From a virus (lineage: Duplodnaviria > Caudoviricetes), in IMG/VR virus record IMGVR_UViG_3300017747_004151, positions 1-42,717 of that record: a DNA stretch of 42,717 bases; one strand, given 5' to 3'. The translations under genes were made by a program, and so were the position numbers. Positions 11,525 through 37,320 of this stretch are shown here, in pieces. Each line of letters starts with the position of its first letter. The first letter of the stretch is position 1. Below the pieces are notes generated by a model. The model made no database searches and had not been told where the DNA came from. It was given only the letters and a program-made list of their open reading frames with translations.

Positions 11525-12952
11525 CTACATCAGGCTGTTGAAGAACGAGACCAAATCCGCCGGCTGGTATTGCTCCACCTGAAGGTGCCCGCTCCCCGCG
11601 GTCTCGATCGACGTCGTCACGCCCGCCAGCTCCAGCTGTCCGTTCAGAACGTCGACGTGCTGCTCCCTCGGGACCAGCGTATCCGTGCCGCCGATGCCCG
11701 CGTAAAACCGGAACGCCACTCTCGAGTACGAGTCCATGCCGTTCGCGGACGGGTTGAATCCGGCCGAATTCGTCACGTACTGGGAGTGGTCGGCGGCGCT
11801 GTAGGCCGCCCGGATCGAGGCCTCGAAGCTCGGGTTGGCTTCCATCAGGTCTAGGTCGACCACCGGGCAAATGCCGGCCGCGCCGATCACCCCTCTCATT
11901 TTCCGCCGGGCGATGGCGTTGAACATCGACGCGGCGCCGCCGGAGCAGCCGAGCAGGAAGACCGGCCCGCAGTAAACCCGGGCCCGGATCCAGTCCACGA
12001 TGGCTTCGTAATTGGTCAGGGAGGCCGCGTTGCCCCAGCGGTCGCCGCCGTCATCTGCGCTCAGGAGGATGTACCCGGCAGCGTCCAGTGCGTCTGTCAC
12101 CGGGTAGAGGCGCGACTCCGTCATCGGGCTGTCGGCGTCTCCGGTGCTTGCCTGGTGCATGTAGACGACGATCGGGGTCGGGGTAAACGCGTAAAGGTCT
12201 GCCGGGAGGTGGATGCGCCACCGGTCGGTGATGTTTCGCCAGATCACGTTGCCGGTGTTGCCCTCGATCGTGCCGGCAGCGTTCGAGGTTGTCAGGAACG
12301 GCGTCAGCGACTTCCGCACCCCGATCGCCTTCACGTAGGACCCGGAGGTGCCGTTCGTGGCGCCGTTCCAGCAGATGATGCTGGTCACCGCTCCGCTGTT
12401 CGGTGCGATGCTCCTCGGGATCGATATCGAGTACTCCGCGCTGCCGTCCTGCGATCGCAGCACCAGGGATATGTTCTCGTTGTCGGCCACCACCGTTGCA
12501 CGGTAGGCCCCGGCCGCGAGGGTGTCCGCTGACAGGAAGACGTTCCCCGTCGGGCTGCCGATGAAGTTGGCGCCGAAGAACGTGGTCGGTCTCCGGCTGG
12601 CGCTGCCGATCCCGATGCCGCAGAAGTTCGGCAGCGAGGCATTCACCCCATCGTTCGTGCCGCCGAAGTTCAGGCCGATGTACTGGGTGCCGGCGTTCGT
12701 GCCGACGTTCTGGATCTCGCAGGTCAGCTTGACGGTCTCCGTGGCGGTGGCGGCGAAGGCCCTGCCTGCTGCTGCCGGGTTGCCGCCAGCGACGCCGTAG
12801 AGGCGGTTCGTTGCGACCTGGACGTTGGAGTTTGTCCAGCTCGTAAGGTTGGCCCAGTCGTGCGTCAGCTCGGTGGCCGTGAGGTGCTCGGTCACCAGCG
12901 GGTGCGCCGCGATGTTCTGGCCGCCGAACCGGCGCAGGAACCCGGGTTTCAT
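11525..12952 (-). CDS. Tail-associated protein with C-terminal alpha/beta-hydrolase (esterase) domain
   Basis: Start ATG 12952 (TGATG overlap). Nucleophile elbow LLGCSGG, Asp in DTLVP, His in SGHL; beta-rich N-terminal half. Confidence 0.75.
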   Translation of the reverse strand: MKPGFLRRFGGQNIAAHPLVTEHLTATELTHDWANLTSWTNSNVQVATNRLYGVAGGNPAAAGRAFAATATETVKLTCEIQNVGTNAGTQYIGLNFGGTNDGVNASLPNFCGIGIGSASRRPTTFFGANFIGSPTGNVFLSADTLAAGAYRATVVADNENISLVLRSQDGSAEYSISIPRSIAPNSGAVTSIICWNGATNGTSGSYVKAIGVRKSLTPFLTTSNAAGTIEGNTGNVIWRNITDRWRIHLPADLYAFTPTPIVVYMHQASTGDADSPMTESRLYPVTDALDAAGYILLSADDGGDRWGNAASLTNYEAIVDWIRARVYCGPVFLLGCSGGAASMFNAIARRKMRGVIGAAGICPVVDLDLMEANPSFEASIRAAYSAADHSQYVTNSAGFNPSANGMDSYSRVAFRFYAGIGGTDTLVPREQHVDVLNGQLELAGVTTSIETAGSGHLQVEQYQPADLVSFFNSLM

Positions 12953-13617
12953 CACGCCACCCCGTAGATGTCGCCGTTGCCCAGGATCAGCACCGGCACG
13001 CTGGTCACCGCGTTCGCCGTCGACGTGATCGTCGGCGCGGATCCCGACTCCCATGTCATCGTCGGCCATCCGGTGACGGTCCTGCCTCCGGTCGGGTCCT
13101 GTTTGAAGAGGACCAGCACGGACAACGCCTCGCCGCTCGGGGCCGTCGGCAGAATGATCGAGGTCACGTTGCCGTTCAGGTCGACCAGCCAGACGTCGAT
13201 GTCGGGATCGTTCAGGGTCAGCACGCCGGTGGCCGGGCTCGCCGTGTTGTAGGTGTCTGCGGCCGCAGCTCCACCACCGCCTCCGGCTGCCGCGAAAAGC
13301 TCCCAGCCAGCCGGACTGCCGCCGACGAACTCATACCTGGCGGCCTCATCGATCACGTAGGCCATCCACCCCAGCTGCGGCGATATGAAGTTCCAGCCTC
13401 CGCTGTAGTAGGCGATGTCCGCCGCACTCCCGCCGCCGGTCGTCGCCGTCAGGATGTACGCGTCGCCCTCGCTCGGGCTGCCTGGCAGCGCGGCCACCTG
13501 GGAGAGCACGTTGCATTGCACGAGGACGTCCAGCAGGCGGAGGCTGGCGTTGATCGGGACCTCGGGTTGGCTTTGGCTGGCCGCGACCTCATCCATGCCG
13601 AGTTTCGGGGTTGTCAT
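12952..13617 (-). CDS. DUF2793-domain tail fibre / adaptor protein
   Basis: MTTPKLGM...SQSQPEVPINASLRLLD...GD.YI...W.F..P..GW.AYV.DE. Confidence 0.8.
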   Translation of the reverse strand: MTTPKLGMDEVAASQSQPEVPINASLRLLDVLVQCNVLSQVAALPGSPSEGDAYILTATTGGGSAADIAYYSGGWNFISPQLGWMAYVIDEAARYEFVGGSPAGWELFAAAGGGGGAAAADTYNTASPATGVLTLNDPDIDVWLVDLNGNVTSIILPTAPSGEALSVLVLFKQDPTGGRTVTGWPTMTWESGSAPTITSTANAVTSVPVLILGNGDIYGVA

Positions 13618-16600
13618 GTTGTGATCTCCGCGGGGGTTCCCCGGCCCACGACGGCCGAGAGTTGGTAGACGGTTGCCTGCACGCTGGTCGGGCCGGGGCT
13701 GCCGAAGTCAGTGGTTTGCTGGGCCGAGGTGTAGGTCACGGTCTGCGTCGTCGACGTCAGGGTCCGCACCACCTGGGTCGGGCTGCCCTCGGCATAGATG
13801 TCGATCGAGTAGGATTCCGTCTCCTCGCTCAGGGGGATGTCGGCGCCGCTGACCAGCGTCCGGCCGATGCGGCCTCTCCGCACCCAAGTGAAGACGATAT
13901 CGCCGTCGACGGTTTCCGCCTCGAGGAGCACGGGGGAGAACGGCAGCAGGGCCACGCCTCTCCCGGTAAAGGTCTGGTCTGTTCCGCTGGCGAAGCTCTT
14001 GCCGGCAGACACCGCCCGGTACGTCCGCACCTGGCCGATCTCCGTGGTATCGAGCGGCAGATGAAAAACCCCGGATCCCGACAGAAGCACAAACCGCTCC
14101 GCCGCCTGCGCGGTGCCGACGAGGTGCTCTGTCCCGCGGCGGCCCCGCAGGAGGTTGGAGAGCTCCCAGGTCGTCGACGTAAGCTGGGTTGCGGTCCGGA
14201 ATTGCACCAGCTCCCAGCGGCCGTCCACGCCGATCGCGGCCAGGTTCTCTCCGGACAGGATCTGGTCCTCGGTCTTAGAGGACAGCGTGCCGCTCTGCAG
14301 CGTGACCTGGATCGTGTTGGCGGTGTCCCACGTCGTCGTGATGCCTACGCCCGGGGGCCCGCTCAGGGTGCCCATGGTGGCCTGCGCGGTCGCGCTGGCG
14401 ATGTTCGACCATCCGCCGGTGCCGTCGAGCGAACGCCAGATCAGGGCGCCGAGCCAGGCGTTGCCGGATCCGGTGGCTCTCACTGCCCCGTAGATGCCGG
14501 CATTGTTGTCGGTGTCGCGCGGCGCCGGGATGTCGAGCAGGACCAGCTCGGTGTCCTGATACACCTGCAGGATGTTCGGCGCGCGGTCCGGGGCTGCTGC
14601 GATGCGGGTTGAAACGTAGGCGCCGTCGTCGTCCTCTGTCAGTTTCAGCTTGCGCAGCAGCGCCGCCTGGTCGGTGATCTGGGAAATCCTGCAGCGCACC
14701 CAGCGGCCGCCGATCGGCACGGCGATGCAATCCGCCCCCTCGAGTTGGCTGTACGACCGGTCGATCGCGATTTCATGCGTCCAGCGTCCCGCCCAGGCGT
14801 CTGACCAGAGGATGTCGGCGGCCTGCACCGCCTTCGTGTCGCTCATCGCGATCGCCGCCTGCACGTCGACGATCTGATCGGCGTCCGTGCTGATCCGGGT
14901 CACCGAGAGTTGCTCGCCGGCTTCGTAGTCCCGGCTGGTCGCGATGTAGTGCAGCCGGATCTGCTTGGGCAGCTCGACGTCCTGCTGCATCGTCGACTCG
15001 ATGGCCGCCCGCGCCTGGCCGCCGCTCGAGGCCGCGCCCAGGTCGTCGGTCTGCAGGGTGGCCACGATCCCCCGGCCGCGGGTCGGGAACTTGATCAGCA
15101 CCCCGGATTCGACGACGTCGAAGAACCCGACCGGGATCAGGCTCTGGATCGCGTCGCGTGCCGTCATCACGCGCTGGATCGACCAACCAGTGATGTAGTT
15201 CTCGCGCAGGTCCTCGACGTCAATGTCCGTCAGGGCCAGGCCGGCACGCAGGGCGATGCGCTCGAGGCAGTCGGCGATGCTGACTTCGTTCGGGGTGATC
15301 GAGGTTCCGCTGGTCGCCTGCCAGGCGAAGTTCTGCACCACCGGGTAGTCCGCGCTGTACGTCAGCCCGGAGGGCATGGTGCCGTCGGCCACCGCTTGAG
15401 CGTAGTGGGCTTCCCATGTCGCCTGGTCGTTGTACAGGGCGTCGTCGTCTCGCAGCGCCGGGCCCACCGGCTGCGAAAACGGCACGCCATTGCCGCCGTA
15501 CTCGCTGTAGCTCTGCAGCACCTTGAAGGTCCCGACCGCCAGCGTCCAGCCGGTGGCGGCCGGCGGTTGCGGAACCCGGCGGGTGTAGATGGCAATATCG
15601 CCGGCGAACGACACCACCGCCGGGCCGTAGCGGTTGCCTGAAATGACGACGTAGGAGGGATCGGTGGTGCACCCTGGGTTCGCGATGCTCGGGGAATTAT
15701 TCGTCACGAACATCCCGACGTGCGCGTACTGGCCGTGCTGCCACGGGTTGCTCCCGCCCGGGTCCCAGTGCGTCCAGAATGCGGCGTCAGGCGCACTCAC
15801 CGCGCCAGGGTTGTACCACTCCACCGGCGTGCCGTTGATCGCCTGGTCAGCGCCGTAGGCCAGCGAGCAGATCTGGGTGTTGCTCCCCGTCAGGAATCCG
15901 GTTGGCGCCTGGCCGGTCGGGTAGAAGATGCCGACCGCGCCCACGTTGAAGTTGATGGTGGCCGTCTCGTAAGGCCCGAACTCTGCAATCAGCGCTGGCG
16001 TCACCGTCTCCGTGTAGCGCTGGTACCCGACCGCGCCGGCGGCGGTGTAGATGTAGTTCAGTGTCGCGGAGGCCTCTCTCGAGGTCAGCGCCGCGGTGAA
16101 ATCATCCGTCCACACCCCGTTCGTGTTCGTCATGTACTCATGCGTGTTGAGCGGGTTCCTCGGGTCGGTTGCCCCCTGCAGCCACGGATAGACCACGCTC
16201 TGGGCGAACGTGTCGACGACGTCGGCGGTGCCGCTCTCGTACACTTCAAACTTAAATTGCGGGTGGCGCTGGGCTTGGTTGTCCTGCAGCGCCCGGTTCG
16301 GGTACACGATGTACATCAGCTCCCGGAACGCCGGCACGTTGCCGATCCCTTCGGCGGCCTTGATCGTCGGGTCCGCCAGCTGGGTCTCGCTGCCCAGGTA
16401 GAGCACGAAGGTGTCGGCGTAGGTGGTCGACGCGGTCAGGCGGGTGCTGAAGTCCTCGTCGCTCTCGTAGCTCTGCTGCGGCCGGATGTCATACACCAGC
16501 TTGCCGTTTTCCCAAATCCGGAGCAGGCCGCCCATCTCGCGGCCCGGGGGCGCCCGGCACAGGCCGATGGCGATGGACTGGGTGTAGCTGAACGAGGTTA

Positions 16601-17322: not shown

Positions 17323-18227
17323 GTCGGTCCCTTGAGCAGGGCGGCCACCCCGGGGATAAAGACGCCCTTGCCCCGGAAGTTGATCAGGTTCGCGAACTTG
17401 TCCCGGCAGGTCGCCAGCGTCCGGTCGCAGCCGGGCTCGAGCGCAAAGGTATCGCCGACCTCGGGCTCCTCGGGAAGAGGGTCCCAGAGGGTAATGATCC
17501 CCTGCGTGCCGCCGGTGCTGTCCAGCTTGACCTCGCGCTCGAGCGCCAGGCCGGCGTTTATCCCGGTCAGCGGCCGCAGAATGCCACCGTCGAAGTACCC
17601 GGCCGGCTGAGTCGTGATGCCCGAAACCGTGAACTGCTTCCGGCTGACAACAGCGGTGATAGTGGCGGTGATGGTGACGCCGGCCACGGCGAATCCGCAG
17701 CGGGTGTCGCCCAGCCTGCGGACGTCGCAGCTTTCCCCGTACGTCTGCGTGATGTTCTGGCTGAAAACCTGAACGAGGCCCCGCAGCTCCGTCTTGTATC
17801 CGCCGTCCGAGTTCGGCTGGATCTCGCCCAAGTATCCCCGGCGGAGGATCCCGACGCCCATGCCTGGCGATTCCCAGTTCACCAGGAAGGCCGTCACCGG
17901 CGCCCGGTTCAACACCCCGGCCGTGATGTCGGCAAGTGTGACGTCCGCCACGATCTGGTTTGCGGGGGCGATCGCGCCTTGGATCTCCATGTTGTCCACG
18001 GAGAGGTCGGTGGTCGACGTGATGTCCGACGCGGTGATGTTGGCGAGGGCGTGGTAAGTCCCGCCCAGGCCGAGGCTCGGGCTCCCGCTTTCCGGGACCT
18101 CGATGTCTTGGTCATGCTCGGTGGCGCGGATCACCGTGCCGTCGCGCTTCTCGACCAGCCAGCAGATGGCCGTCTTCGCCTGCTCGCCGCGCAGGTACGC
18201 CAGCAGCGCCGGGGGCCAATCCCTCAT
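17319..18227 (-). CDS. DUF2163 baseplate hub protein
   Basis: Start ATG 18227 (ATGA overlap). CW...RDG, LSVDNMEI.G, VNWE, C...LGD.RC, GCDRT..TC..KF.N..NFRG. Confidence 0.9.
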   Translation of the reverse strand: MRDWPPALLAYLRGEQAKTAICWLVEKRDGTVIRATEHDQDIEVPESGSPSLGLGGTYHALANITASDITSTTDLSVDNMEIQGAIAPANQIVADVTLADITAGVLNRAPVTAFLVNWESPGMGVGILRRGYLGEIQPNSDGGYKTELRGLVQVFSQNITQTYGESCDVRRLGDTRCGFAVAGVTITATITAVVSRKQFTVSGITTQPAGYFDGGILRPLTGINAGLALEREVKLDSTGGTQGIITLWDPLPEEPEVGDTFALEPGCDRTLATCRDKFANLINFRGKGVFIPGVAALLKGPT

Positions 18228-18862
18228 GTCTCTGGCCTCAGCTCGCGCAGCGTCACGGTCACGCTCTGCACCTTGTGGCTGACGATCTCGAATTGCGGAT
18301 CCGTGTCGAACCGCACCGGCACGTAGAACTCGCCGCCCCACGTCGTCGGCGTGCCGCTGAATCCGCCCGTCGTCGTCAGGTACCCGGTGTCCTCCTCGAT
18401 GGTCCACGTGCTCGAGGCTTGCTCGACGCCCGATTCGTTGGCGATCCGGATCGTGTCGCCCTTCGGCAGGATGTTCGTGCGGACGGTGGCGAACAGGCCC
18501 TCGACGTATTGCTTACTCAGCTTGTAGGCGCCGGGGCTGCCGGTCAGTGCTTGGATCGGCTGGTCGGTCGGGCCTGGCGTCGCGTCCAGTGCGCAGCTCT
18601 TGTAGTCGACCCAATCCTTGAACCTGAACCGCACGAACTCGCCGGTCAGCGCATGCCAGAACCGCAGCACCGACTCGATGTCCGCCTGCGGCTTCTTGCC
18701 GATCGGCACGCCCTCGTAGTAGTGCAGGGGCTCGCGCCACTTCAGGTCGCGCCGCTCGAACCCGCCCTCCCGCTCGATTTTCTTGACGAGGTACTGGGCG
18801 CGGCTGGTGAACCCGAACGTCGGGCATCCCGGGAACAGGGGCAGGGTGCTCGGGGTGATCAT
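18224..18862 (-). CDS. DUF2460 distal tail protein
   Basis: GG.ERR...W, FRFKDWVDYKS, GGEFYVPVRFDTD. Confidence 0.9.
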   Translation of the reverse strand: MITPSTLPLFPGCPTFGFTSRAQYLVKKIEREGGFERRDLKWREPLHYYEGVPIGKKPQADIESVLRFWHALTGEFVRFRFKDWVDYKSCALDATPGPTDQPIQALTGSPGAYKLSKQYVEGLFATVRTNILPKGDTIRIANESGVEQASSTWTIEEDTGYLTTTGGFSGTPTTWGGEFYVPVRFDTDPQFEIVSHKVQSVTVTLRELRPET

Positions 18863-21387: not shown

Positions 21388-21811
21388 CCGTGAGCACCAC
21401 TTCGCCGGTGATCTTGCCGCCGAAGCTCATCGTGTTGCGCTCGGTGAAGCTCGGGGAGAGGGCCCAGCTCAGGGCGACCGCAAAGAAGTTCATCAGCAGG
21501 AGGGACGGGCTGTCCTCCTCGACAACGATCCGGAACTCGAGGGTGGCCTTGTCTTTCACCGCTTGGATCAGCGTCCGGATCTTGGACGTCGGGTCCTGCT
21601 TGAACTTCAGCTGCCACGTGAATTCCTGCCCATCCGCCAGGCCGGCGATGTACTCGCGCGTGCCGTCGCTGCAGAAGTCCGTGTCTTCGATGAGTTCGTT
21701 CGCCTCGCCCACTTCGCCGAGGTCGGTCACCTCGCAGATGCGGGTAAAGGCAGAGGGCGATCCCTCACCGATTTCGAGATAAATCTTGCCGACGAAACCG
21801 CGCACGCTCAT
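21380..21811 (-). CDS. Major tail tube protein
   Basis: I.EV.D.G..G....IE.TD..S...EYIAGL.DG; synteny. Confidence 0.88.
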   Translation of the reverse strand: MSVRGFVGKIYLEIGEGSPSAFTRICEVTDLGEVGEANELIEDTDFCSDGTREYIAGLADGQEFTWQLKFKQDPTSKIRTLIQAVKDKATLEFRIVVEEDSPSLLLMNFFAVALSWALSPSFTERNTMSFGGKITGEVVLTDV

Positions 21812-21814
21812 GGC

Positions 21815-22668: not shown

Positions 22669-23045
22669 TGCGTGGTACCCAGGCTCCGGAATCCCTCGGC
22701 TCCGCGCTTCACGCAGTAGAGGTGGACTTCCTGCTTCCGGGCGTCTGCCGGCCGGACCGCGATGATGTCGAAGTACTCCCACTCCGTCGGGCTGCCCGAA
22801 ACCATCCGGTGCCGGATCCGCATTTTCTCCGTGATGCCCTCGCGCCAGCGCACGCGCACCCGGCAGTCGATCTCTTGCTGGATCTGGGCGCCGACCAGGC
22901 CCTCCCGCCAGCTGCCCTCGTACTCGATGCTGGCCGCGATCTCGAGCAGCCACGGCTCGTAGTCCTCGGCAATGGTTCCGCCGAGGCGCCGGGTCTCCAC
23001 CTTGCGCTCGAGGTCCACGCGCTGGCGAAGGGGGCCGGCTCTCAC
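22665..23045 (-). CDS. Head closure / head-tail adaptor (SPP1 gp16-like)
   Basis: Start GTG 23045; RAGPLRQRV, VRWREGI..KMRI, FDIIAV. Confidence 0.88.
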   Translation of the reverse strand: MRAGPLRQRVDLERKVETRRLGGTIAEDYEPWLLEIAASIEYEGSWREGLVGAQIQQEIDCRVRVRWREGITEKMRIRHRMVSGSPTEWEYFDIIAVRPADARKQEVHLYCVKRGAEGFRSLGTTQ

Positions 23046-25326: not shown

Positions 25327-25946
25327 GGTACGTAGATCCTGTTTGGGTCTTGCTCTGCCACCTTCAGGTACCCGTGAGCCCGGAGCAGGCGATCGAGGCC
25401 CTCGGGGGTGTCTCCGTACCGCCGCAGCTGCCTCTCGACCACCTCGACGATGACCACCGGCCGGCAGCGCCGCAGGGTTTTCGATGCGCCGCGCAGCGCC
25501 CGGACCTCGGCTCCCTCGAGGTCCAATTTCAGCAGATTGCAGTCGTCAAGGTTCAGGGTGTCGATGGCGATGCCGCTTGCATAGCAGTCCTCTTCGGTGC
25601 CCTCGCCGGGTGCCGACTCCAAGGCTGGCGCCGCGTAGTAGGCGGTACTCGAGGTCCGCTTCTTCGGGTGCGTCATTCGCAGCAGCATGTTGCTGTCCCA
25701 GAGGGCGGTCGGGCTCGGGTAGATGTTCGGCGTCGAGTCGGTCCGCTCTCGCAAGTTCTGGTAGCTGAATCCCACCGGCTCGAACGCCATCACCGCCCGG
25801 AAGTGCGGAGCCATGGCCATGGCCCACTTGCCGACGTTGGCGCCGCCGTCGATCGCCATTTCGTGGTTCCGCACGTGACCCAGCGCGACGCTGAGGATCT
25901 CCATCTCCAGCGCCTCGCTGGCATCGCGATCTTTCACACTCTTCAT
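25320..25946 (-). CDS. FkbM-family methyltransferase
   Basis: IDGGANVG, FEP, LLKLDLEGAE..ALRGA..TL....PVVIVE. Confidence 0.92.
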   Translation of the reverse strand: MKSVKDRDASEALEMEILSVALGHVRNHEMAIDGGANVGKWAMAMAPHFRAVMAFEPVGFSYQNLRERTDSTPNIYPSPTALWDSNMLLRMTHPKKRTSSTAYYAAPALESAPGEGTEEDCYASGIAIDTLNLDDCNLLKLDLEGAEVRALRGASKTLRRCRPVVIVEVVERQLRRYGDTPEGLDRLLRAHGYLKVAEQDPNRIYVPC

Positions 25947-26418: not shown

Positions 26419-26655
26419 CTACGTTGGCTTCTCGACGACGCTGACGCCGTTCTGCAGCACGATCACGTGGATGCTTGGCGCCAGCTTTTTGAACTCGAAG
26501 TTAATCCGTGTCATCTGCTCTGCGGTCAGCGGCCGGGTGGATTGCAGTAACACCGTTTCCCCGGGGGCCGCCTTCGTTGCGCTCAGGATCCCGGCGAGGT
26601 CCTGCCGTAGGCTGGACGCGGATGATGACGTTCGTGACTTCCGGGCCGCGGTCAT
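26419..26655 (-). CDS. Hypothetical protein overlapping the SDR gene 3' end
   Basis: AAGGGAG RBS before ATG 26655. Confidence 0.45.
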   Translation of the reverse strand: MTAARKSRTSSSASSLRQDLAGILSATKAAPGETVLLQSTRPLTAEQMTRINFEFKKLAPSIHVIVLQNGVSVVEKPT

Positions 26656-27172
26656 AAAGCACTCCCTTGACGGTTCTGGCGACGTCGATCGATCGGCAGT
26701 GTGGGCGTTCCTCGAGGACCTTCGGGTAATCATGCCGCTGCGATACCCAGTAGCTGTCGCCGATGATCGGGGGGCAGACGCACACCAGCTGCTGGTTTAA
26801 CCCGGTCCGGCGCCACTTCACGTAGGCGTGCAGTCCTGCCTTGCCGAGCGCGTAGGCTTCGTCGTGGCTGCCGTTGATCGCGGACTCGCTGCCGATCACG
26901 CAGATGCGGATCTCCGGCGTGTTGTCGAGAAACAGGTTGCACATCCGGACCACGCTGACCATGTTGATCCAGAGGCTCTCTTGGATCTCTTGCTGGGACT
27001 GCTCCTCGATCTTCTTGTTGCCGATGTAGCCGCTCGCGATCAGGATTCTCGGCGGTGGTGGCCCGTCTTCGATCTCGTAGAAATCGCACACCGCAGTGCC
27101 ATGCGGCAGGATCGGGATCAGTGCTTTCGCGATCGATGTCCGGATCCCGGCAATGGCAATGACGTTACGCAT
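26501..27172 (-). CDS. SDR-family NAD(P)-dependent oxidoreductase
   Basis: IAGIRTSIA Rossmann variant, IGSES, YALGK (YxxxK). Confidence 0.75.
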   Translation of the reverse strand: MRNVIAIAGIRTSIAKALIPILPHGTAVCDFYEIEDGPPPPRILIASGYIGNKKIEEQSQQEIQESLWINMVSVVRMCNLFLDNTPEIRICVIGSESAINGSHDEAYALGKAGLHAYVKWRRTGLNQQLVCVCPPIIGDSYWVSQRHDYPKVLEERPHCRSIDVARTVKGVLYDRGPEVTNVIIRVQPTAGPRRDPERNEGGPRGNGVTAIHPAADRRADDTD

Positions 27173-28154
27173 TGATCATCTCCGTTACCACCCGGCCGGC
27201 GTGGAGGATGGCGTCGATCTTCCCCGCGCGCACGCGCAGGCGAGAGAAATCCACCTGCTGAATATCCACCAGCCTGGCGTCCGCTCCGGACTTCGGCATG
27301 GCCCGGATCGAGAGGCGGTGGTCTTTCAGCTCGTAGCGCTTCCGGCTGTCCGGCCAGTAGTGGGCCAGCTGGTCGATCATGTCATTGCACCGCCTGGCGA
27401 TGGCTCTTGAAGTCAGCGACTTCAGCAATTGCCGGGCGTCCTCGTACCGATGGCACGTCTTGCTGAACGGCGTGAACTTCGCGGAGGTCAGGCTGTTGAG
27501 GTGCTTGTCCTCATCCCATGGGTAGAGGCTCGGAAACGGGCCGTCCATGATCGTGACCGCCCGGTCCGTCGGGCCTTTCAGCAGGGCAGTGACGCAGGGC
27601 TCGAATCGGTCGATATTCAGCGCATCGTTCGCGCAGAAGGTGCAGTCAATCGTCCAGTCGAATCGCTGGCCGTCGTCGGTCGGGGGCCGCTTCAGCTTGA
27701 TGATGTCGCCGAGCAACTTCCTGAAGTGCTCTCGCGCCTTCGCGATGACAATGTGCCTCTCCCCGGTCATCAGCGCGCCCTCGACGTTCTGCAGCCCATA
27801 CTCGGCTGGATCCTCGACGACGATGTATTGGCAGTCGCTGCGAAGGACTTGCATGTACGTCCCGAAGTCCACCTGCGATTCGTGCTCCGCCACGGCATAG
27901 AGGTTGACCGGGACCGCCCGGGTCATGAACCCGTAGGCGTCCATGAACGCCGAGTAATGATCTTGGCAGGCCGCTCTGGTGAGGTGCGATCGCGGGTAGT
28001 GGAATCCCAAGTGGAGGCGCGCTGGGTTGCCGCCGCTCGCGCCCATGAAGATGTCCTTGCCGATTTCGTGCAGCTCGACCTCGCAGCCGCGCGCGTGAAG
28101 AACCGCTGCAATGTGGCAGCCGTACCATCCGCCTCCGAGCACTCTAATCCTCAT
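27165..28154 (-). CDS. FAD-dependent oxidoreductase (DAO-like)
   Basis: VLGGGWYG, GASGGNPARLHLGFHYPRS, IMDGPF.SLYP, GKID. Confidence 0.85.
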   Translation of the reverse strand: MRIRVLGGGWYGCHIAAVLHARGCEVELHEIGKDIFMGASGGNPARLHLGFHYPRSHLTRAACQDHYSAFMDAYGFMTRAVPVNLYAVAEHESQVDFGTYMQVLRSDCQYIVVEDPAEYGLQNVEGALMTGERHIVIAKAREHFRKLLGDIIKLKRPPTDDGQRFDWTIDCTFCANDALNIDRFEPCVTALLKGPTDRAVTIMDGPFPSLYPWDEDKHLNSLTSAKFTPFSKTCHRYEDARQLLKSLTSRAIARRCNDMIDQLAHYWPDSRKRYELKDHRLSIRAMPKSGADARLVDIQQVDFSRLRVRAGKIDAILHAGRVVTEMINA

Positions 28155-28344
28155 TCTTCACCGCCAGGTCTATCCAAAGGCCGGCCACGGTTCCGGTTGC
28201 GCGCACGCCCTGCCGGCGTGCCTCTGCTCGGGTCACCGCGTAAACCGACAGGATGACGTACTCGTTTTTTCGCCCGGTGCACAGCCGCACATTCATGTCC
28301 GGATCGAATCCCTGCAGCTCTGCGATCAGCTCCGCGACGGTCAT
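28144..28344 (-). CDS. Hypothetical protein
   Basis: MTVAELIAELQGFDPDMNV; ATGA overlap. Confidence 0.6.
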   Translation of the reverse strand: MTVAELIAELQGFDPDMNVRLCTGRKNEYVILSVYAVTRAEARRQGVRATGTVAGLWIDLAVKNED

Positions 28345-28940
28345 ACGATATGCCTCTCGACGATCACCTGGCCGTTCTCCCGCCGCTCGCGGGTTGCGAT
28401 GGTGATCTCGCATCCGTTGTGCGGCCTGGCAGCGATGAATGCTCGCCACTCCACCGCCGTCCACCGTGGCATCCTCCCGGGATCCGCAAAGACTTGCTTC
28501 CGGACCTCGCCGATCTTCTCCGCGATGTACACCGCTCTGGTCGCGAAGGTCGTCAGCTGGTCGATTGCCCATGGCAGGTCGTCGACCGGGATGCTGCCCA
28601 GCGCGTGCGTGCACACCACGAGGTCGAAGTGGCCGGTGGGCGTCTTTGCGTACGGAGGGTATGCCGGGTCGAAGAGCGTCACTGGGACGCCCCAGTACTC
28701 CTCGATCGTCATGCCCTTCGGGATGCTGGCGTCGTCGCCGTGGCTCACCCACTGGTACTGCACTCCCTTGCCGCATCCGTAGTCGAGCACCGACTTGCAT
28801 TCGAGGCGGTCGATGATCGCCTTGATAAAGGGGGCATGCGGTCTCAGAAACTTCCCGCTGTACGTCTTGCTCGACGCGTGGTGGGCCTGCGCCTCTGCGA
28901 GGCAGCGGTAGTAGTGCTCGGATGGCTTCTTCACGGTCAC
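28341..28940 (-). CDS. Class I SAM-dependent methyltransferase
   Basis: VLDYGCGKG, FDPA, FDLVVCT. Confidence 0.88.
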   Translation of the reverse strand: MTVKKPSEHYYRCLAEAQAHHASSKTYSGKFLRPHAPFIKAIIDRLECKSVLDYGCGKGVQYQWVSHGDDASIPKGMTIEEYWGVPVTLFDPAYPPYAKTPTGHFDLVVCTHALGSIPVDDLPWAIDQLTTFATRAVYIAEKIGEVRKQVFADPGRMPRWTAVEWRAFIAARPHNGCEITIATRERRENGQVIVERHIV

Positions 28941-29131
28941 TCCGTTATGCGATGAACGACGAGGCTTCGCAGCGGCTTAGGTTGCGCTGTTCCCCATGAA
29001 ACCGCCCACTGCCAGCAATGGTAGAGCGATCGCTCATGAAACACCCGCGTCTCCTCGCTGCCGTCAGCGAAGATCGCGACGACGCTGTAAGCCTTTGGCT
29101 GTTCCACTGAGGGCCGGCCGCGGTCATCCAT
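28937..29131 (-). CDS. Hypothetical protein
   Basis: ATG 29131; stop overlaps the next GTG. Confidence 0.45.
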   Translation of the reverse strand: MDDRGRPSVEQPKAYSVVAIFADGSEETRVFHERSLYHCWQWAVSWGTAQPKPLRSLVVHRITE

Positions 29132-29990
29132 AAATCTGGGGGCGCAGCGTCGCCCATGCCTCTCCCGATGCAAACTCCGGTTGCGTCCATTGGCAGTACG
29201 CGAGGTTCGCCATCCATTGCGCACGCGCCGATGGACTCGCCAGCGTCGGGTTAGCCAGGTCCTCGATGTCCGTACTGCTGATCGGCTTGGCGACCCCGTC
29301 GCCCAGAATGATGCAGGGCACGCCGAGCACCACCGCTTCAAAGCAGGCATTACTGCCGTGCGTCACCAGGCAATGCGCGCCCTTCAGTACTTGCTCGATG
29401 GTTTCCGGGTTCCTCGAGAACCGGGTCCCTTCGATCTCGACGGCTTCTTTCCAGCTGGGCTTGGGCCGGTAGACGATCTCGCGTTCCGATCCTCCGGCTT
29501 CCACCTCGCGGATCCGGCGCACCAGTTTCTTCGTCCATCCGGTGGGCTCTTTCAGGCCGTAGAAGTCATGGTATTTCTGACTGCTCCCGGCGATGACGAT
29601 GTGCTTGCCTTCCTTGCGCCAGGGCACGACCGGAATCCCCAGCCGCTCGATGCGGTCAAAGGGTCGAAGGATCGACATCAGCTTGGCGGTCGGGTGGTGG
29701 CCGTTCACCGAGGTGAGCCAGAACTCCCAGATTTTCACCGGGCCTGGCGCCGCGTGCCGGGTGTATCCCTTGTCCAGCATCACCGTGTGGATCCCGGCCT
29801 GCCAGTGCGCGTGGAACAGCGCCCGGCTCTTGACGCCGACCATGACCGCCACGTCCGCCTGCGCGACCTCGATCTCCGGCTGCAGGGGTCGCAGCTCGAC
29901 TTCGTCTCCGTGCGCTCTCACGCCGTCGCGGAAGGCATCGGCGAGGATCCGCTCCCGGGGTTTGTCGCTATGCCAGAACGTGACTTTCAT
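29124..29990 (-). CDS. GT-B glycosyltransferase-like (KpsS/KpsC-like), paralog C
   Basis: DKGY, PWRK.G..I, YRPKP, LVTHGSNA..EA...GVP, R..W..NLAYCQW...E...G.AW. Confidence 0.7.
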   Translation of the reverse strand: MKVTFWHSDKPRERILADAFRDGVRAHGDEVELRPLQPEIEVAQADVAVMVGVKSRALFHAHWQAGIHTVMLDKGYTRHAAPGPVKIWEFWLTSVNGHHPTAKLMSILRPFDRIERLGIPVVPWRKEGKHIVIAGSSQKYHDFYGLKEPTGWTKKLVRRIREVEAGGSEREIVYRPKPSWKEAVEIEGTRFSRNPETIEQVLKGAHCLVTHGSNACFEAVVLGVPCIILGDGVAKPISSTDIEDLANPTLASPSARAQWMANLAYCQWTQPEFASGEAWATLRPQIYG

Positions 29991-30205
29991 ACTTCCACTC
30001 CGAATGCCTTTATGAGACGTTCCTGCCCGCTGCTTTCATAGGCCGCGACCACTTCGCAACCTTTGCGCGGACACTTGAGGAATAAAACTCCATTGTCCGG
30101 TGTTTGCCCTCTGTCCTGCACCATGCCGCCACCATGTATGGCGCACCTTTTTTCGGTCAGGCGGAATCTGCGGGCATGGGTGCCCTGCCCATCGATCCTG
30201 GTCAT
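29987..30205 (-). CDS. Small Cys/His protein in AT-richer insert
   Basis: CAIHG...CPRKGC; ATGA overlaps. Confidence 0.5.
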   Translation of the reverse strand: MTRIDGQGTHARRFRLTEKRCAIHGGGMVQDRGQTPDNGVLFLKCPRKGCEVVAAYESSGQERLIKAFGVEV

Positions 30206-30672
30206 TTTTCGACCTCGTCGATGATTCGTCTCGCCAAACTTAACAATTCATCATTCGACAGCAGCAGCGCGAGCGCTGCTCTGCCGACAGAAGCCATGGC
30301 GGCCGTTGAAGAAATATTGTTAGCTTCACCAATTGTGGCCAGCGACATCCCTTCTAACCTTTGCTTTAATCTCCGCATCCCTTGGCGATCCGGGGCATAA
30401 AATATTGCCGGCCTACCGTCTGACATCCGGCGCATCCTCGCACCCGACCAGCTGACGATTTCCTGCACTGACTTGGTTTGTCTTTCATAAGGTTCACCTC
30501 TTTTAGGGGAAGCTTTCCCCATGATGTAAGTTCTCTCGCCTCGGTTTTTAAGGTGATTTTCTATAGCTGTTTTTACATGTTCTCTGTCCAGCGGTTCGAT
30601 CGGTACCTGCGCTTCCCACCCTAGTCTCCAGGCCTCGAGTCTTTTACGTGCTAGCGGTGATAGCTCATTCAT
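30202..30672 (-). CDS. Hypothetical protein in AT-richer insert
   Basis: ATG 30672 (ATGA overlap); many A/T third positions. Confidence 0.55.
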   Translation of the reverse strand: MNELSPLARKRLEAWRLGWEAQVPIEPLDREHVKTAIENHLKNRGERTYIMGKASPKRGEPYERQTKSVQEIVSWSGARMRRMSDGRPAIFYAPDRQGMRRLKQRLEGMSLATIGEANNISSTAAMASVGRAALALLLSNDELLSLARRIIDEVEK

Positions 30673-31523
30673 GGGATCAGTTTCTCCGCCTTGAGGTGTT
30701 GCCAGGCCGCGCCGCTCTGCATTTCCGCGATGCTCCATTGGGTGTAAGCGATGTCCCTCAGCCACGCCTCGCGGCCGTCTGGGAACATCGGCGTCTCGAT
30801 GCGCTTCAGGTCCTGCAGCGCCATCTCCGTGGCAACACCGCGCCAGCAGAACGCGGGGATGCCGGCCACGAGGCCGTCGATGGCGACGTTGCTATGGTGC
30901 GTAACCACCGCCCAGCAATCGCGCAGGTCGTCCTCGACCTCGCGCGCGTGTGGCGCGCTGTAGGCGACGCCAGCCATGACGATGGGCTTTGCCTTTTTCC
31001 AGCTGGGCTTCGGTCGGTAGAGGATCGGCCGGTCCGTGACTTGCCGGATGGCCGTGATCGCCTCGCGTTCCCATTGCTCGACCGGGTACCCCTCCGCCTG
31101 GCTCCCCTTGTCGCCCATGCCGGCCAGCAGGATATGGCTGCCGGTCTTTCGCCATGGTTTGACTTGAATGCCGAACCGCTCGAGGCGGTCTGCATCGTGC
31201 TGGCGCTTCCGGTAGTAGGACGTCGGGTGGCGATCGTTGATGCTGACCTTGTGGTACCCGCTCCACCGGCCGCCCTCGCGCCGGCCCCAGTAGCCAAGGT
31301 CGACGTACACCGCCTTCGCCTGGCTCCGGTAGTCAGCGAATATCTGGGGCATTTTCCCCTCGAGGCCGTAGAAGATCGCGACGTCGTGGTCGACGCGTCC
31401 GGTGTACTCGTGCTCGAAGCAGCGCCGGGCAATGTCGCCGGATCGGTGCACGCCGTTGTACATGGCGTCTGCAATCAGCTGCGATCGGTGGTGCTGCCCG
31501 ATGGCGAACACCGCGACGTTTAG
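30669..31523 (-). CDS. GT-B glycosyltransferase-like, paralog B (start uncertain)
   Basis: DLGYW, PWRK.G..I, YRPKP, VVTHHSNVA..G...GIP, R..W...IAYTQW...E...G.AW. Confidence 0.7.
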   Translation of the reverse strand, partial: LNVAVFAIGQHHRSQLIADAMYNGVHRSGDIARRCFEHEYTGRVDHDVAIFYGLEGKMPQIFADYRSQAKAVYVDLGYWGRREGGRWSGYHKVSINDRHPTSYYRKRQHDADRLERFGIQVKPWRKTGSHILLAGMGDKGSQAEGYPVEQWEREAITAIRQVTDRPILYRPKPSWKKAKPIVMAGVAYSAPHAREVEDDLRDCWAVVTHHSNVAIDGLVAGIPAFCWRGVATEMALQDLKRIETPMFPDGREAWLRDIAYTQWSIAEMQSGAAWQHLKAEKLIP

Positions 31524-32299
31524 AGCTCCAGCAGACGCTTGAGTGGCAGGCCGGTTGCGATTTCTTCGGTGTTCCATGTTGTCCACGCCAGCCTCTCGAA
31601 CATCGGCAGCCTCGACTGCAGGTAGGGGTACTCGATCGATTTCCCCAACAGCTGCCCGGCGCCCGCCCCTATCCATTTCTGGTGCCCGAAGAACACCGGA
31701 ACGCCGAGCACCAATGCCTTCAGGGCCGCCCCGGACGCCCACGTGACGCAGCAGTACGCGTCGCGCAGATCATCCTCGATCGGGGCGGCGGTGCCCTCTC
31801 CGGGGTGCTCTCGAATCCGGACCGGCCGCGCAGTTGCCTGCTGCAGTCGCTCCGCCACTCGACGGTGCCAGCCACTCGGCTGCGCGATCCCGTCCGGGCC
31901 GATTCCCCTCTGGGCCAGAACAATAACCTCTTTCCCGCCCTTGCGCCACTCGCAAAGGTTGACTCCCCATTTCGCCCAGCGTTCCGGGCCTCCGGCCGGG
32001 AATCGGCCACCGCCCGCCGCAGGGTTGTCGAGCGCGATGGAGTACCAGCGGTGGCGATCGCCGCGCCAGTCGCGGCCCATGAGGCCGTTCTCGCAGCAGA
32101 TCACCCGGGCTCCGACCCGATCAAACATCGCCGCCGCGCGCGCCCACGGGCCGTAGCGGTTCCAGATCAGGAGCACGTCGTCTTTGCCTGGCTGGTCTCG
32201 CGGAGGCCCGTGGACCTCGTAGCCGCAGGCCTGCAGGCCGGCGTTGAACGCCTCCCGCCGGTAGTGCGGGTCGTGGCGGATCATGCTGTACGCCCTCAC
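31520..32299 (-). CDS. GT-B glycosyltransferase-like, paralog A
   Basis: Start GTG 32299 (GTGA overlap); ENG, WRK.G..V, REHPG, VTWASGAA..AL..GVP, LAW..W...EI..G. Confidence 0.7.
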   Translation of the reverse strand: MRAYSMIRHDPHYRREAFNAGLQACGYEVHGPPRDQPGKDDVLLIWNRYGPWARAAAMFDRVGARVICCENGLMGRDWRGDRHRWYSIALDNPAAGGGRFPAGGPERWAKWGVNLCEWRKGGKEVIVLAQRGIGPDGIAQPSGWHRRVAERLQQATARPVRIREHPGEGTAAPIEDDLRDAYCCVTWASGAALKALVLGVPVFFGHQKWIGAGAGQLLGKSIEYPYLQSRLPMFERLAWTTWNTEEIATGLPLKRLLEL

Positions 32300-32925
32300 C
32301 GGATGGCTTCCAGCGGCGTCTTCGGCCAGTACGGCAGCGCCGACCAGGCGCACGTGTTGATGACCTCGATGTCCTCGAGGCGCAGGTCTATCGCCATTTT
32401 GCCCATGCCTTTCACGAACGCGCCGAAGTTCGAACGCGTGATCAGTCCCTTCGGGTGGTCGCCGAACCAGTGTTCTCTGTCACCGCGCCGGCACATGTCG
32501 AATCCGACGAGCACGATGCGCTTGGCACCCCAGCGGTAGGCGAGGTTGATTCCCTGCGCCCCGCTGTTGCCGACCATGCCGCCGCTCCGGATCGGGCCTG
32601 GCGCTTTGCCTAGGCCTTCGGCGTGCTGGACTTCGACGAGCGTGATGTCTTCGACCCGGTTCCTCGGGTTCCACTGCGCGCTCGAGTACTTTTCGCCTGC
32701 GAACCCGTCTCGGATTCGCTCGAGGTAGGTGGGCTCGCCTGGCTCTCTGCGGGCGCTCCACCAGCGTTCGTCGGCGGCGTAGAGGGCTGCGGCTCCGGGG
32801 TGACGCTGCCAAGCATCGTTGATGGCGATGGCTGGCCAATCTGGCCAATCTCCCGGGCCGTACGCGTTGCCGCTTGGCCCAGTGGCGATGACGAGGGCGG
32901 TGCATCGTGCGTCTCGAAATTCCCA
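32296..32925 (-). CDS. Maf/DUF115- or sialyltransferase-like glycosyltransferase domain (start unresolved; frame open to 33105)
   Basis: VIATGPS, IAIND, LYAAD..WW, NSG..GINLA...GAKRI.LVGFD, HWFGDHP, VIN. Confidence 0.7.
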   Translation of the reverse strand, partial: WEFRDARCTALVIATGPSGNAYGPGDWPDWPAIAINDAWQRHPGAAALYAADERWWSARREPGEPTYLERIRDGFAGEKYSSAQWNPRNRVEDITLVEVQHAEGLGKAPGPIRSGGMVGNSGAQGINLAYRWGAKRIVLVGFDMCRRGDREHWFGDHPKGLITRSNFGAFVKGMGKMAIDLRLEDIEVINTCAWSALPYWPKTPLEAIR

Positions 32926-33089
32926 GCCAGCCGGTCGCCGGAGAGGATCTCCACGTGTCCCGCTCCCATCAGGGCGTATGCCCGGTCTCGCGTCGTGTTC
33001 CACTCTTGTCCCTTGCTGACGTGGCCCTCGAACATGCTGCTGAATCGAATCAGGGCTCGCACCCTGAATTCTGTTGCTGGATTGGTCAT
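32610..33089 (-). CDS. Small post-capsid protein; ~55-aa N-domain plus low-complexity tail
   Basis: GAGG RBS. VRAL..F....G.V..G.E.......A..L...G.VE resembles small proteins that follow HK97-type capsid genes. Confidence 0.6.
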   Translation of the reverse strand: MTNPATEFRVRALIRFSSMFEGHVSKGQEWNTTRDRAYALMGAGHVEILSGDRLAGNFETHDAPPSSSPLGQAATRTAREIGQIGQPSPSTMLGSVTPEPQPSTPPTNAGGAPAESQASPPTSSESETGSQAKSTRARSGTRGTGSKTSRSSKSSTPKA

Positions 33090-33107
33090 TGCGGTGCTTC
33101 CTCATAC

Positions 33108-33148
33108 AAAAAGAAACCCCACCACCGGGTTCGCTCCGGTGGTGGGGT
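33108..33148 (-). terminator. Rho-independent terminator after the capsid gene
   Basis: 13-bp perfect stem ACCCCACCACCGG/CCGGTGGTGGGGT followed by TTCTTTTT on the minus strand. Confidence 0.88.
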
Positions 33149-33177
33149 GTTTAGGGCTGAATGCCAGCCAGAGGGAA

Positions 33178-34464
33178 TCAGCTCGCGTTCAGGTTGCTGT
33201 AGTCGCCCTTGATCAGCGCCGACGCCCGGTAGATCGCAAGGGCCAGGCGTTCCTCGGCGAGGATCGTGACCATGTTCTTCCGGAAGTTGTCGCTGTCCTC
33301 ACGGGAGAGCTCCACGGCTGCCTGCATGCGGTCCCAGATCTGGGCGGCCTGCGTGCCATTGGCGCACAGGAACTGGCCCCTCGGCATCGTGTTGGTCACG
33401 ACGACGGGGAGGCCCCAGAGGGTTGGTCCGACCATCGACTGCGGGTTCGCGATCACGTACTGATTCGTCGTGTCCTTGAGCAGTTCGATCTCTTCCCAAT
33501 CCTGCGGGTTGAGCACGTAGAACTCGGGATCGTACTCGGACAGCTGCAGCTGGGTGATTGCCCGGCGCAGGATGTCCAGCTTGGTTCCCGTGGCCAGGCG
33601 GTTAAACGCCGTGGCCGATGCCATGAGGCCCGTCAGCTGGCCGACGCTACCGTCCGCGAGCAGGATCTCTTCCTCCTCCTCGAGAGCCAGGCCGTAAAGC
33701 AGGCGTCCGTTGATGTAGGACTCCAGCATCGGTGCGTCCTCGAGCACCTGCGTCGAGACGAGGATGAAGTGCGCGATGGTCACCACCGGCGCGTTCGCCA
33801 GCGTGAAGGTGATATCCGACTCATTCTTCGTCTGGTTTTCGCCTGCTACCGTCGGGCTGCCGCCCACCTGGGGGCCGGCATTGTTCGTGAAGACGTTCTC
33901 TTTCACGTACTGCACGAGGTTGGACGAAGTCCGCCCGGAAGGGATCAGCTGCCGGATGCGCAGACGACGGTTCGGGGTCGTGATGACGCCCGGCACCCGC
34001 ATGTCCGGCACCAGCGGCTGGTTCTGCCCGGTGGCGTTCGTGATCGCCTTGATGTCGAAGGTGTCCGTTTCCAGGCGTGCCTTCTTCGTCAGGGTCCGAA
34101 TGCCCTTGTAGTCGGCAAGGTCGACGAACTGAGCACCCAGATTCTTGAGGGCCGCGCCCTCGGGAATGCGGTTGCTCTTGGCTTCGATCTTGTCGATGCG
34201 ATCGCCGAGGCCGTTGATCGTCTCGGTCAGGCTTGCGAGGGCCGTCTTGGTCTCGAGCGAAACCGCGCCGGCTGCCTTGATCTCATCGTTCGCCTTTTCG
34301 ACGAAGGACTTGATTTGCTTGTGGATGGCCAGGAACTGGGTCTGAAAGTCAGCCATCGACTTCAGGTCGGCGGCCGTCAGGTCGCCACCACCGGCGCCGC
34401 CGCCGGCGTCTGCTTTGGCGTCCATCAGGCGCCCGTGGATCATTCGCTGCAAATGCACGTTCAT
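33178..34464 (-). CDS. Major capsid protein, HK97 fold
   Basis: Coiled-coil delta domain; RRLRIRQLI, TIAH, QVLEDAP.L.SYI, LWGLPVV, DNFRKNMVTILAEERLAL. Confidence 0.97.
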   Translation of the reverse strand: MNVHLQRMIHGRLMDAKADAGGGAGGGDLTAADLKSMADFQTQFLAIHKQIKSFVEKANDEIKAAGAVSLETKTALASLTETINGLGDRIDKIEAKSNRIPEGAALKNLGAQFVDLADYKGIRTLTKKARLETDTFDIKAITNATGQNQPLVPDMRVPGVITTPNRRLRIRQLIPSGRTSSNLVQYVKENVFTNNAGPQVGGSPTVAGENQTKNESDITFTLANAPVVTIAHFILVSTQVLEDAPMLESYINGRLLYGLALEEEEEILLADGSVGQLTGLMASATAFNRLATGTKLDILRRAITQLQLSEYDPEFYVLNPQDWEEIELLKDTTNQYVIANPQSMVGPTLWGLPVVVTNTMPRGQFLCANGTQAAQIWDRMQAAVELSREDSDNFRKNMVTILAEERLALAIYRASALIKGDYSNLNAS

Positions 34465-34468
34465 GGGA

Positions 34469-35182: not shown

Positions 35183-35212
35183 GGCTGCTCTCCCCGGTTG
35201 GCAGATTGTGAG

Positions 35213-36862: not shown

Positions 36863-36909
36863 TTAGATCTCGCCTTGTGCGCCATCTCCCTCCGCAGATG
36901 GCGATCCGC

Positions 36910-37320
36910 TTAAGCGTTGCCGCCCGTGAGCGAAAACGCCGTCATCGTCACCACCTGGCCCTCTGCCACTGCGATGTTGTCGACGGTCATGTCGCCACCG
37001 CCGCCGGTTGCGGTCACCGTGCCCTGCATCTGGCAGGTTGCCGGGCTGCCTGGTCCGCCCTTCAGCCTGAAGTGGCCGATGTTGCCGGCCGCGACGCCGA
37101 ATCCTGGCCACGTGCCGTTGATCGCCTTGACGCGCGCCGCCGCGGCCGTCATCCAGTCGGATCCCGGCTCGATGATGGCGAGCAGCGTTCCGCTGTCGGC
37201 GGTTTCCGGCGTCGCGGGTGGGGAACCAGAGCGCAGTTCGATATAGGGGAACGTGCCGAGGCTGGTCTCGATCTGATCCAGCCGGGCGTTTTCGAGAGCG
37301 ACCGAGGTTTGCAGCGTCAT
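36910..37320 (-). CDS. Putative virion decoration/fibre subunit
   Basis: NARLD.IE...G, GTLLA, GHFR, QGTV...GGGGDM.VDN..V..GQ.V....F.LT.GNA. Confidence 0.65.
   Translation of the reverse strand: MTLQTSVALENARLDQIETSLGTFPYIELRSGSPPATPETADSGTLLAIIEPGSDWMTAAAARVKAINGTWPGFGVAAGNIGHFRLKGGPGSPATCQMQGTVTATGGGGDMTVDNIAVAEGQVVTMTAFSLTGGNA

Follow-up and report, generated by a model that had tools for sequence, protein, structure and literature searches.

We analyzed the viral record IMGVR_UViG_3300017747_004151 (42,717 bases, 64% G+C, completeness ~88%), which at its full length we call the window, and propose that short Ser-Pro loops on the capsid, neck, tube and tail-tip proteins of this phage serve as a sequon for O-glycosylation of the virion, a reading to which we assign a probability of roughly 0.65. 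The minus strand of the window encodes terminase, portal, HK97-type protease and capsid in this order; ~9 kb of enzyme genes separate the capsid from a gp6-type adaptor, which is followed by the genes for head closure, neck, terminator and tube and by a gene transfer agent (GTA)-type tail tip; the genes and sites of this region described below are all on this strand. The phage encodes predicted glycosyltransferases (GTs) of GT8-like, GT-A-like, Maf-like and KpsC-like types. The evidence for our proposal is an excess of Gly-Ser-Pro (GSP) in the structural proteins of the window, and the co-occurrence, among related phages, of Ser-Pro tags in these proteins with one gene, the Maf-like gene behind the capsid.

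Results

Structural open reading frames (ORFs) were assigned from Pfam and PHROG labels together with gene order, with two ORFs, of 136 and 514 amino acids (aa), counted as structural solely through PHROG "virion structural protein" matches. The 21 structural ORFs of the window (6152 aa) contain 13 in-frame copies of GSP, located in 10 minus-strand ORFs of the 21, where composition predicts 1.9 (~7x). An original prediction made for this stretch of DNA had reported 13 copies in 10 structural proteins, and we found every one of them, in frame, at the positions given below. A comparison with shuffled sequences, which that prediction had proposed, gave a mean of 1.96 and a maximum of 9 GSP in 2000 shuffles of the structural ORFs (Poisson p 1.2e-7 for 13), and the first-order expectation from the GS and SP counts is 3.8. 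GSP ranks first among the 8000 tripeptides for over-representation in these ORFs, and the lowest p value for any tripeptide in 500 shuffles was 6.9e-7, never down to that of GSP. Non-structural proteins are not enriched: there is 1 GSP vs. 1.7 expected among the 45 ORFs of this class (7717 aa), and this sole copy, at 2426-2434, is in the 292-aa gene where it had been noticed originally. The portal, tape measure protein (TMP), protease, terminator and NlpC had been described as free of the motif, and we counted zero copies in each of them, as well as in neck1.

Each of the eight GGCAGCCC occurrences in the window reads in frame as GSP, and the GSP serines of relatives use both codon classes (118 TCN and 45 AGY) at a ratio similar to that of background serines (5495 and 2746), which argues that the signal is at the level of the peptide and rules out a DNA repeat or binding site. 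The original prediction had drawn the same conclusion from the variety of codons used; its conclusion stands, but the codon argument has less force than was claimed, in that 6 of the 13 copies are the identical 9-mer GGCAGCCCG, composed of the codons most frequently used for Gly, Ser and Pro.

In the capsid, GSP (Ser203; 33853..33861) is part of an 8-residue insert in the E-loop after HK97 D161; we take the limits of this loop, and its exposure on the outer surface, from the architecture of the HK97 capsid, and exposure of the other sites was likewise judged from the position of the insert and presumed architecture. Among the 120 best capsid relatives, which include the window's own protein and form one clade, Ser-Pro is present in the E-loop insert in 120/120, and the residue ahead of it is G in 73, A in 24, N in 11, S in 4, T in 4, Q in 2, D in 1 and V in 1. 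On these alignments the family motif is a small residue followed by Ser-Pro in a loop, with GSP being the form used by the window's phage. The strict GSP sequon that had been proposed is therefore ruled out for the family, since several residues are allowed at position -1, and its Ser-Pro core is upheld. The capsid protein (33178-34464) also retains the residues aligned to the HK97 Lys, Asn and Glu, which presumably have their cross-linking roles, and the GSP insert lies 8-10 residues ahead of the residue aligned to the cross-linking Lys.

The other core proteins were examined in the same way, and for each site we give the number of homologs with Ser-Pro among those with the Maf-like gene vs. 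those without it. For example, the gp6-type adaptor carries GSP (Ser150; 23380..23388) in a loop inserted after AGY (52/95 vs. 1/19), and its relatives have Ser-Pro inserts in two separate loops, both missing from gene-less homologs and from the adaptor of the Rhodobacter capsulatus GTA (RcGTA). The head-closure protein (Hc1) has GSP at Ser85 (22788..22796; 23/116 vs. 0/19). The tail tube has two sites, GSP at Ser18 (21755..21763; 53/67 vs. 1/12), which had been thought possibly ancestral and is instead mostly linked to the Maf-like gene, and a conserved DSP at Ser101 (21506..21514; 40/67 vs. 0/10), which had been overlooked; a profile search with the tube matched no solved structure and no cultured relative. 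In the distal tail protein (Dit, DUF2460), GSP (Ser109; 18533..18541; 25/46 vs. 0/4) is located at a turn occupied by G-D-G in RcGTA, and in the hub (DUF2163), GSP (Ser49; 18078..18086; 16/44 vs. 0/4) is in an insert missing from the RcGTA hub. The large tail protein has GSP at Ser1042 (13779..13787; 15/29 vs. 0/2). These alignments confirm the loop insertions suspected originally in the capsid (8 residues relative to HK97), gp6 and hub (relative to the RcGTA hub), and all seven window sites in the six core proteins coincide with hot columns of their families.

To follow the motif across phages, we merged 527 loci into 362 groups, of which 231 contain the Maf-like gene and 54 lack it between capsid and gp6; the 77 groups with neither the Maf-like gene nor the capsid-to-gp6 interval in view were dropped, as were rows L001 and L447, which represent the window's record itself or a close duplicate. 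Enrichment was counted in groups showing two or more core proteins, with merging only at identity and with the window included. In the core outer proteins, [GADSN]SP, a residue set picked after the data had been seen, occurs 456 times vs. 133.6 expected in 165 groups with the Maf-like gene, and 32 times vs. 29.9 expected in 47 groups without it; for GSP by itself the figures are 154 vs. 28.7 with the gene, and 2 vs. 6.6 without. In gene-bearing phages, the portal, protease, terminases and neck1 are not enriched (57 vs. 80 expected). In seven phages with only a GT9-like/methyltransferase pair in the same slot there is also no excess of [GADSN]SP (2 vs. 4.1 expected), which rules out that just any GT in this position is the partner of the tags. 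The original prediction had named the whole GT cluster as this partner, and had suggested that insertions and cluster should co-occur; co-occurrence is indeed found for capsid, gp6, tube, hub and Dit, with one gene indicated, the Maf-like gene behind the capsid, and not the entire cluster. In a capsid tree built with the motifs masked, 68/94 rows with the gene and 3/28 without it have tags in half or more of their other core proteins, and nine independent supported pairs divide into 5.9 with the gene, 0.1 against and 2.9 tied (median p 0.031, range 0.004-0.625).

Several variants of this arrangement were observed. The GT9-like/methyltransferase pair, as in D3 orf12/13, fills the capsid-gp6 slot with no Maf-like gene in L527 (13355-15830), L518, L516, L519, L499, L522 and L529, and several of these seven phages have a G-V-S-P stretch in the N-arm region of the capsid; in L523 (7572-9194) and L533 (8117-9682) the same pair is fused behind a Maf-like domain. 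The Maf-like gene or the full cluster is located elsewhere, in the Dit-hub interval or past the terminator, with tags present, in L092 (4255-4900), L315, L326, L341 and L357. A second, divergent Maf-like paralog, which groups in a separate clade and is encoded after a methyltransferase, is present in L132, L156, L160, L163, L168, L174 and others, and these phages have the densest tags, with up to 11-12 in core proteins, chiefly D-S-P and A-S-P. Prophages with a Maf-like gene (65 loci) are mainly from Alpha- and Gammaproteobacteria, and also from Omnitrophota and others.

Loss of the gene can be followed in close relatives. In L376/L152 the capsid runs to gp6 without an enzyme gene between, and at six sites that are Ser-Pro in L377, L416, L385 or L380 these phages have one Ala-Pro, one lost site and four Thr-Pro. 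In L417, which has a gene-less capsid-gp6 arrangement like that of L376, five of six sites are lost; the contigs of L376/L152 and L417 are fragments, and the losses in L376 and L417 may be one event.

The residue at -1 tracks a second gene. In phages with the first KpsC-like gene (n = 13, at least two sites each), Gly is present at -1 in 40/55 sites, vs. 63/268 in phages without a KpsC-like gene (n = 57, at least two sites each; per-phage p 8e-5, kinship uncorrected). This association counts in favor of another explanation, in which a decoration or cement protein docks on the loops, or the KpsC-like or a host enzyme uses them as acceptors, and the Maf-like gene is a linked marker only; two further observations agree with this explanation: the small gene behind the capsid always adjoins the Maf-like domain, and L527 is tagged with other GTs only. 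However, tags are still found in the 57 phages that show no KpsC-like gene, and L376 and L417 retain the small gene and have lost their tags, so that we consider this explanation unlikely.

A second explanation is that the Ser-Pro loops are structural turns, inherited in lineages that also carry the GT module. G-S-P is a turn former, one copy (in the DUF2793 protein) is ancestral, some GSP is found in gene-less phages, and independent contrasts are few. Thr-Pro, however, makes an equally good turn, and at eight family hot spots Ser-Pro is present in 278/651 dereplicated sequences with the Maf-like gene and in 3/97 without it, whereas Thr-Pro is present in 13/651 and 6/97, giving Ser:Thr ratios of 278:13 and 3:6. 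Gene-less siblings retain the turn and exchange Ser for Thr or Ala, the tags fall at two or more unrelated columns in each protein family and in unrelated capsid clades, and phages with another GT pair show no excess. Inheritance of turns is in our view improbable.

The candidate initiating enzyme is a Maf-like (GT42/GT29-fold) transferase domain at 32296..32919, assigned from phrog_4603 and from its predicted structure. The AlphaFold model (predicted local distance difference test [pLDDT] 88) has as its best structural match the Maf flagellin O-glycosyltransferase 5mu5 (Z 13.2, root-mean-square deviation [rmsd] 3.4, 177 aligned, 11% identity), followed by Cst-I (Z 10.5), the pyrophosphokinase HPPK (Z 9.5) and several thiamine pyrophosphokinases (TPKs; Z 6-7.4), and Foldseek ranks Cst-II first (E 1e-3). 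The match of PF01973 to this protein is 18.9 bits, under the curated cut-off of 34.6, and the domain, of ~207 residues and ending at 32296, is without the N-terminal domain and the helical C-terminal domain of Maf (5mu5 has 632 residues). Because the match is below the Pfam cut-off and the extra domains are missing, we class the predicted protein as Maf-like, not Maf. The family has an invariant His pair in the motif HxFGxH, which is presumably placed where Cst-II/GT29 enzymes carry their catalytic His. Homologs in phrog_4603, labeled "alpha-2,3-sialyltransferase" (26-35%), include D3 orf7, P1 pmgO and CcrColossus gp126. The Maf-like tree, in which enzyme clade was compared with tag density, is poorly resolved, and the window protein is a long branch in it. 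The fold of this domain leaves a third explanation, that it modifies Ser with a non-sugar group (pyrophosphate, phosphate or nucleotide) as a relative of the MptE/thiamine pyrophosphokinase fold; S-P is well known as the motif of proline-directed phosphorylation, HPPK and the TPKs have the same fold, and PF01973 matches weakly, but the pyrophosphokinases are outranked structurally by Maf and the Cst sialyltransferases (profile E 0.17 in the MptE/TPK comparison), the His pair is at the presumed Cst-II/GT29 catalytic position, and the neighboring genes are Kdo-transferase-like and GT-A, which together make a non-sugar product hard to credit.

The Maf-like domain is encoded in an unusual position, overlapping in the -1 frame the small gene behind the capsid (32610..33089). 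This overlap in the -1 frame was found in 93 of 110 distinct loci, and in 82 of the 110 the frame of the enzyme is without any in-frame start codon, where 587/657 control genes have one nearby. A canonical slippery heptamer is in phase in 61 of the 110 loci, vs. 16 and 10 in the other two phases. The family-wide lack of start codons, together with the in-phase heptamers, suggests a programmed -1 frameshift in the Maf-like gene family. In D3 (L084 5691-6409), for example, CCCAAAG is in phase at the -1 overlap; the annotated orf7 of this phage begins inside the Maf-like domain. In the window the overlap is also -1, with in-frame starts 39 and 73 codons up, and the candidate slip site, GGGAATTTC (32916..32924), is a non-canonical heptamer behind which we found no stable hairpin (z -0.14). 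The window's Maf-like gene is probably also made by -1 frameshift from the small gene.

The next enzyme gene, at 31520..32299, encodes a predicted GT-B protein resembling the transferases of beta-3-deoxy-D-manno-oct-2-ulosonic acid (Kdo) KpsC and WbbB. The top four matches of its model (pLDDT 94) are all beta-Kdo transferases of the KpsC, WbbB and KrkA types (6mgb, 5fa0, 6mgd, 9yfx; Z 12.5, 11.6, 11.6 and 9.7; 10-12% identity), with the next unrelated chain at 8.4, and the match to KpsC (Z 12.5) has an rmsd of 4.1 over 235 aligned residues. A joint profile identifies a second paralog at 30669..31523 and a third at 29124..29990 (DUF6716, E 1e-5); the three genes are one family, their joint profile matches KpsC at E 9e-5, and at profile level their H/K-P motif aligns with the VHP of KpsC. 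The remaining enzyme genes encode a methyltransferase (Methyltransf_23; 28341..28940), a pair resembling a flavin adenine dinucleotide (FAD) oxidoreductase and a short-chain dehydrogenase/reductase (SDR) (26501..28154, weak matches), an FkbM-family methyltransferase (25320..25946), a 244-aa GT-A-like protein (24592..25326) with a fold that in other viral proteins is fused to an MptE/Maf-like domain, and a GT8-like nucleotide-diphospho-sugar transferase (23795..24583). The SDR-like ORF (26501-27172) and a 104-aa ORF (26419-26733) overlap by ~230 bases.

Discussion

A number of results weigh against virion O-glycosylation at Ser-Pro loops. Two cultured phages with distant Maf-like homologs show no enrichment of Ser-Pro (CcrColossus, 16 vs. 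22.3 expected; S20, 5 vs. 9.8 expected), and in 26/94 gene-bearing rows of the capsid tree tags are found in less than half of the other core proteins. Conversely, gene-less phiCbK and MW202777 have 4 GSP each (vs. 1.5 and 1.1 expected), in fibers and large tail proteins, and tags occur with no Maf-like gene in view in the tube of L031 (GDGGSPE), the E-loop of L062 (ASP), a gp6 insert of L527 (GSP) and an adaptor extension of L152/L376 (two GSP). Terminators reverse the trend, with Ser-Pro in 28/111 with the Maf-like gene and 11/19 without it. Most gene-less contigs are fragments, and few independent contrasts are available overall (p ~0.03); independent-pair tests on the gp6, tube, adaptor, hub and Dit trees had few pairs and were not significant, with the adaptor pairs leaning slightly against a link between gene and tag. 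The collection searched held no cultured phage of the window's clade (best capsid match 45%). As for the enzyme, its fold is common to the pyrophosphokinases, and, according to PMC11339370, Maf enzymes are without a known sequon.

Some individual copies of GSP in the window weigh on the same side. The large tail protein carries a DFGSP (Ser1070; 13695..13703) that interchanges with DFGTP in relatives (Ser-Pro in 10 and Thr-Pro in 6 of 28, and 0/2 without the gene). The first DUF2793 copy (Ser47; 13474..13482), correctly guessed at the outset to be ancestral, is also present in phages without the Maf-like gene (Ser-Pro in 1/1 without the gene and in 8/9 of undecided gene status). In the 136-aa virion protein, GSP at Ser33 (37219..37227) is not kept in two homologs; the copy at Ser92 (37042..37050) is Ser-Pro in 2/3 homologs. 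The second DUF2793 copy (Ser101; 13312..13320) has few homologs, and zero homologs span the copy in the putative tail hydrolase (Ser133; 12551..12559). Since one DUF2793 copy is ancestral, DFGSP and DFGTP alternate, one 136-aa copy is not kept and the hydrolase copy lacks a comparable homolog, perhaps ~8-10 of the 13 copies are tags.

If the Ser-Pro loops are a sequon, the Maf-like enzyme would transfer a cytidine monophosphate (CMP)-activated ulosonic acid onto the tag Ser, acting in the cytoplasm prior to assembly or in the course of it, and would recognize the Pro turn and the small residue at -1, these replacing the flagellin-binding domains of Maf. Host CMP-Kdo would be the simplest donor of the first sugar, because we recognized zero sugar-nucleotide synthesis genes, because many phages have the Maf-like gene by itself, and because Maf is described as transferring Kdo to Ser/Thr in E. 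coli (10.1101/2020.06.03.131540). The KpsC-like and GT-A enzymes could then lengthen the glycan and the methyltransferases cap the chain, giving a coat from head to tail. Expression by -1 frameshift from the small gene would keep the amount of enzyme low, and may supply it with an N-terminal domain that associates with the head. Such a coat might hide the virion from antibodies, from proteases or from the host's surface sensors, or might alter adsorption and stability. A wider picture, which we think possible at somewhat less than even odds, is that a Kdo-based, capsule-like glycan covers the whole virion and is widespread among Gram-negative phages. As tentative parts of this picture, a frameshift-expressed, single-domain Maf-like enzyme might read an inserted small-Ser-Pro turn and attach Kdo taken from host CMP-Kdo, and KpsC-like enzymes might conceivably extend the Kdo; a strict Gly-Ser-Pro would then indicate the extended form.

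The closest known precedent in phages is that of the mycobacteriophages (Che8 and others), where, according to PMC11256854 (citing Freeman et al. 2023), phage-encoded glycosyltransferases act on the phages' own capsid proteins and a glycan shield is proposed. The window likewise encodes predicted glycosyltransferases, but it differs in its presumably Gram-negative-type host, in the CMP-sugar-type folds and in the position of the enzyme genes within a head-neck operon; the feature here is one short motif across ~10 different proteins. Chlorovirus PBCV-1 also encodes machinery for glycosylation of its major capsid protein, Vp54, where, according to PMC4691112, the glycans are N-linked, the host is eukaryotic and the sites have no common sequence pattern. 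With Maf (PF01973/Maf_flag10) the predicted enzyme would have in common its central catalytic fold and the addition of an ulosonic acid to Ser; unlike Maf, it is a catalytic domain of ~200 residues alone, has a candidate sequon and is probably expressed by frameshift. The protein at 31520-32299 appears, from its model, to have the GT-B variant fold of the beta-Kdo transferases KpsC, WbbB and KrkA, but is one of three single-domain paralogs in a virion operon, and its acceptor would be a protein-linked sugar and not a lipid or polysaccharide. D3 resembles the window in that its Maf-like homolog is also behind the capsid with a -1 overlap, and in having GSP in its tube, terminator and two tail proteins (5 vs. 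1.1 expected); D3 and S20 differ in that their capsids are without the E-loop insert. P1 pmgO is listed as non-essential in PMC10695390, and in the literature we found no assigned function for D3 orf7, P1 pmgO or CcrColossus gp126. A literature search that covered few subscription journals returned nothing on a Ser-Pro tag sequon, Kdo-coated capsids or the frameshift.

If our reading is correct, virion glycosylation would reach beyond the mycobacteriophages to many phages of proteobacteria and other hosts (the gene is present in 231 locus groups), and would be predictable from sequence. It would also give a testable role to thousands of phage genes annotated as "alpha-2,3-sialyltransferase" or "hypothetical," including D3 orf7 and P1 pmgO, and the cultured phage D3 puts the question within immediate experimental reach. 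In addition, because Maf enzymes are without a known sequon, protein engineering would gain a useful tool in a cytoplasmic O-glycosyltransferase of 200 residues that acts on a tag of three.

Additional features of the record

The interval between portal and protease (35213-37693, minus strand) contains three genes, of 120, 136 and 549 aa. The 549-aa protein contains repeated "TLG.TL.A" units, and the DSP, NSP and ASP copies in the 120- and 549-aa proteins may be further tags. Two DNA methyltransferases are encoded in the window, a Dam-like enzyme at 9014-9865 (plus strand) and a ParB-fused enzyme of N6/N4 type at 41228-42643 (minus strand), beside the small terminase. We also observed a duplication of ~90 bases, at 8292-8380 and 10895-11000, with both copies reading RVTQDWHPSNRSPLLKGNRQM and with a third, partial copy near 10300; the repeat precedes small plus-strand genes and resembles a repeated promoter or ribosome-binding site element. 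An ORF at 1288-2226 (minus strand), which adjoins a small membrane protein and RusA, begins with a stretch resembling a signal peptide and contains a fibronectin type III domain (Pfam E 4e-5).

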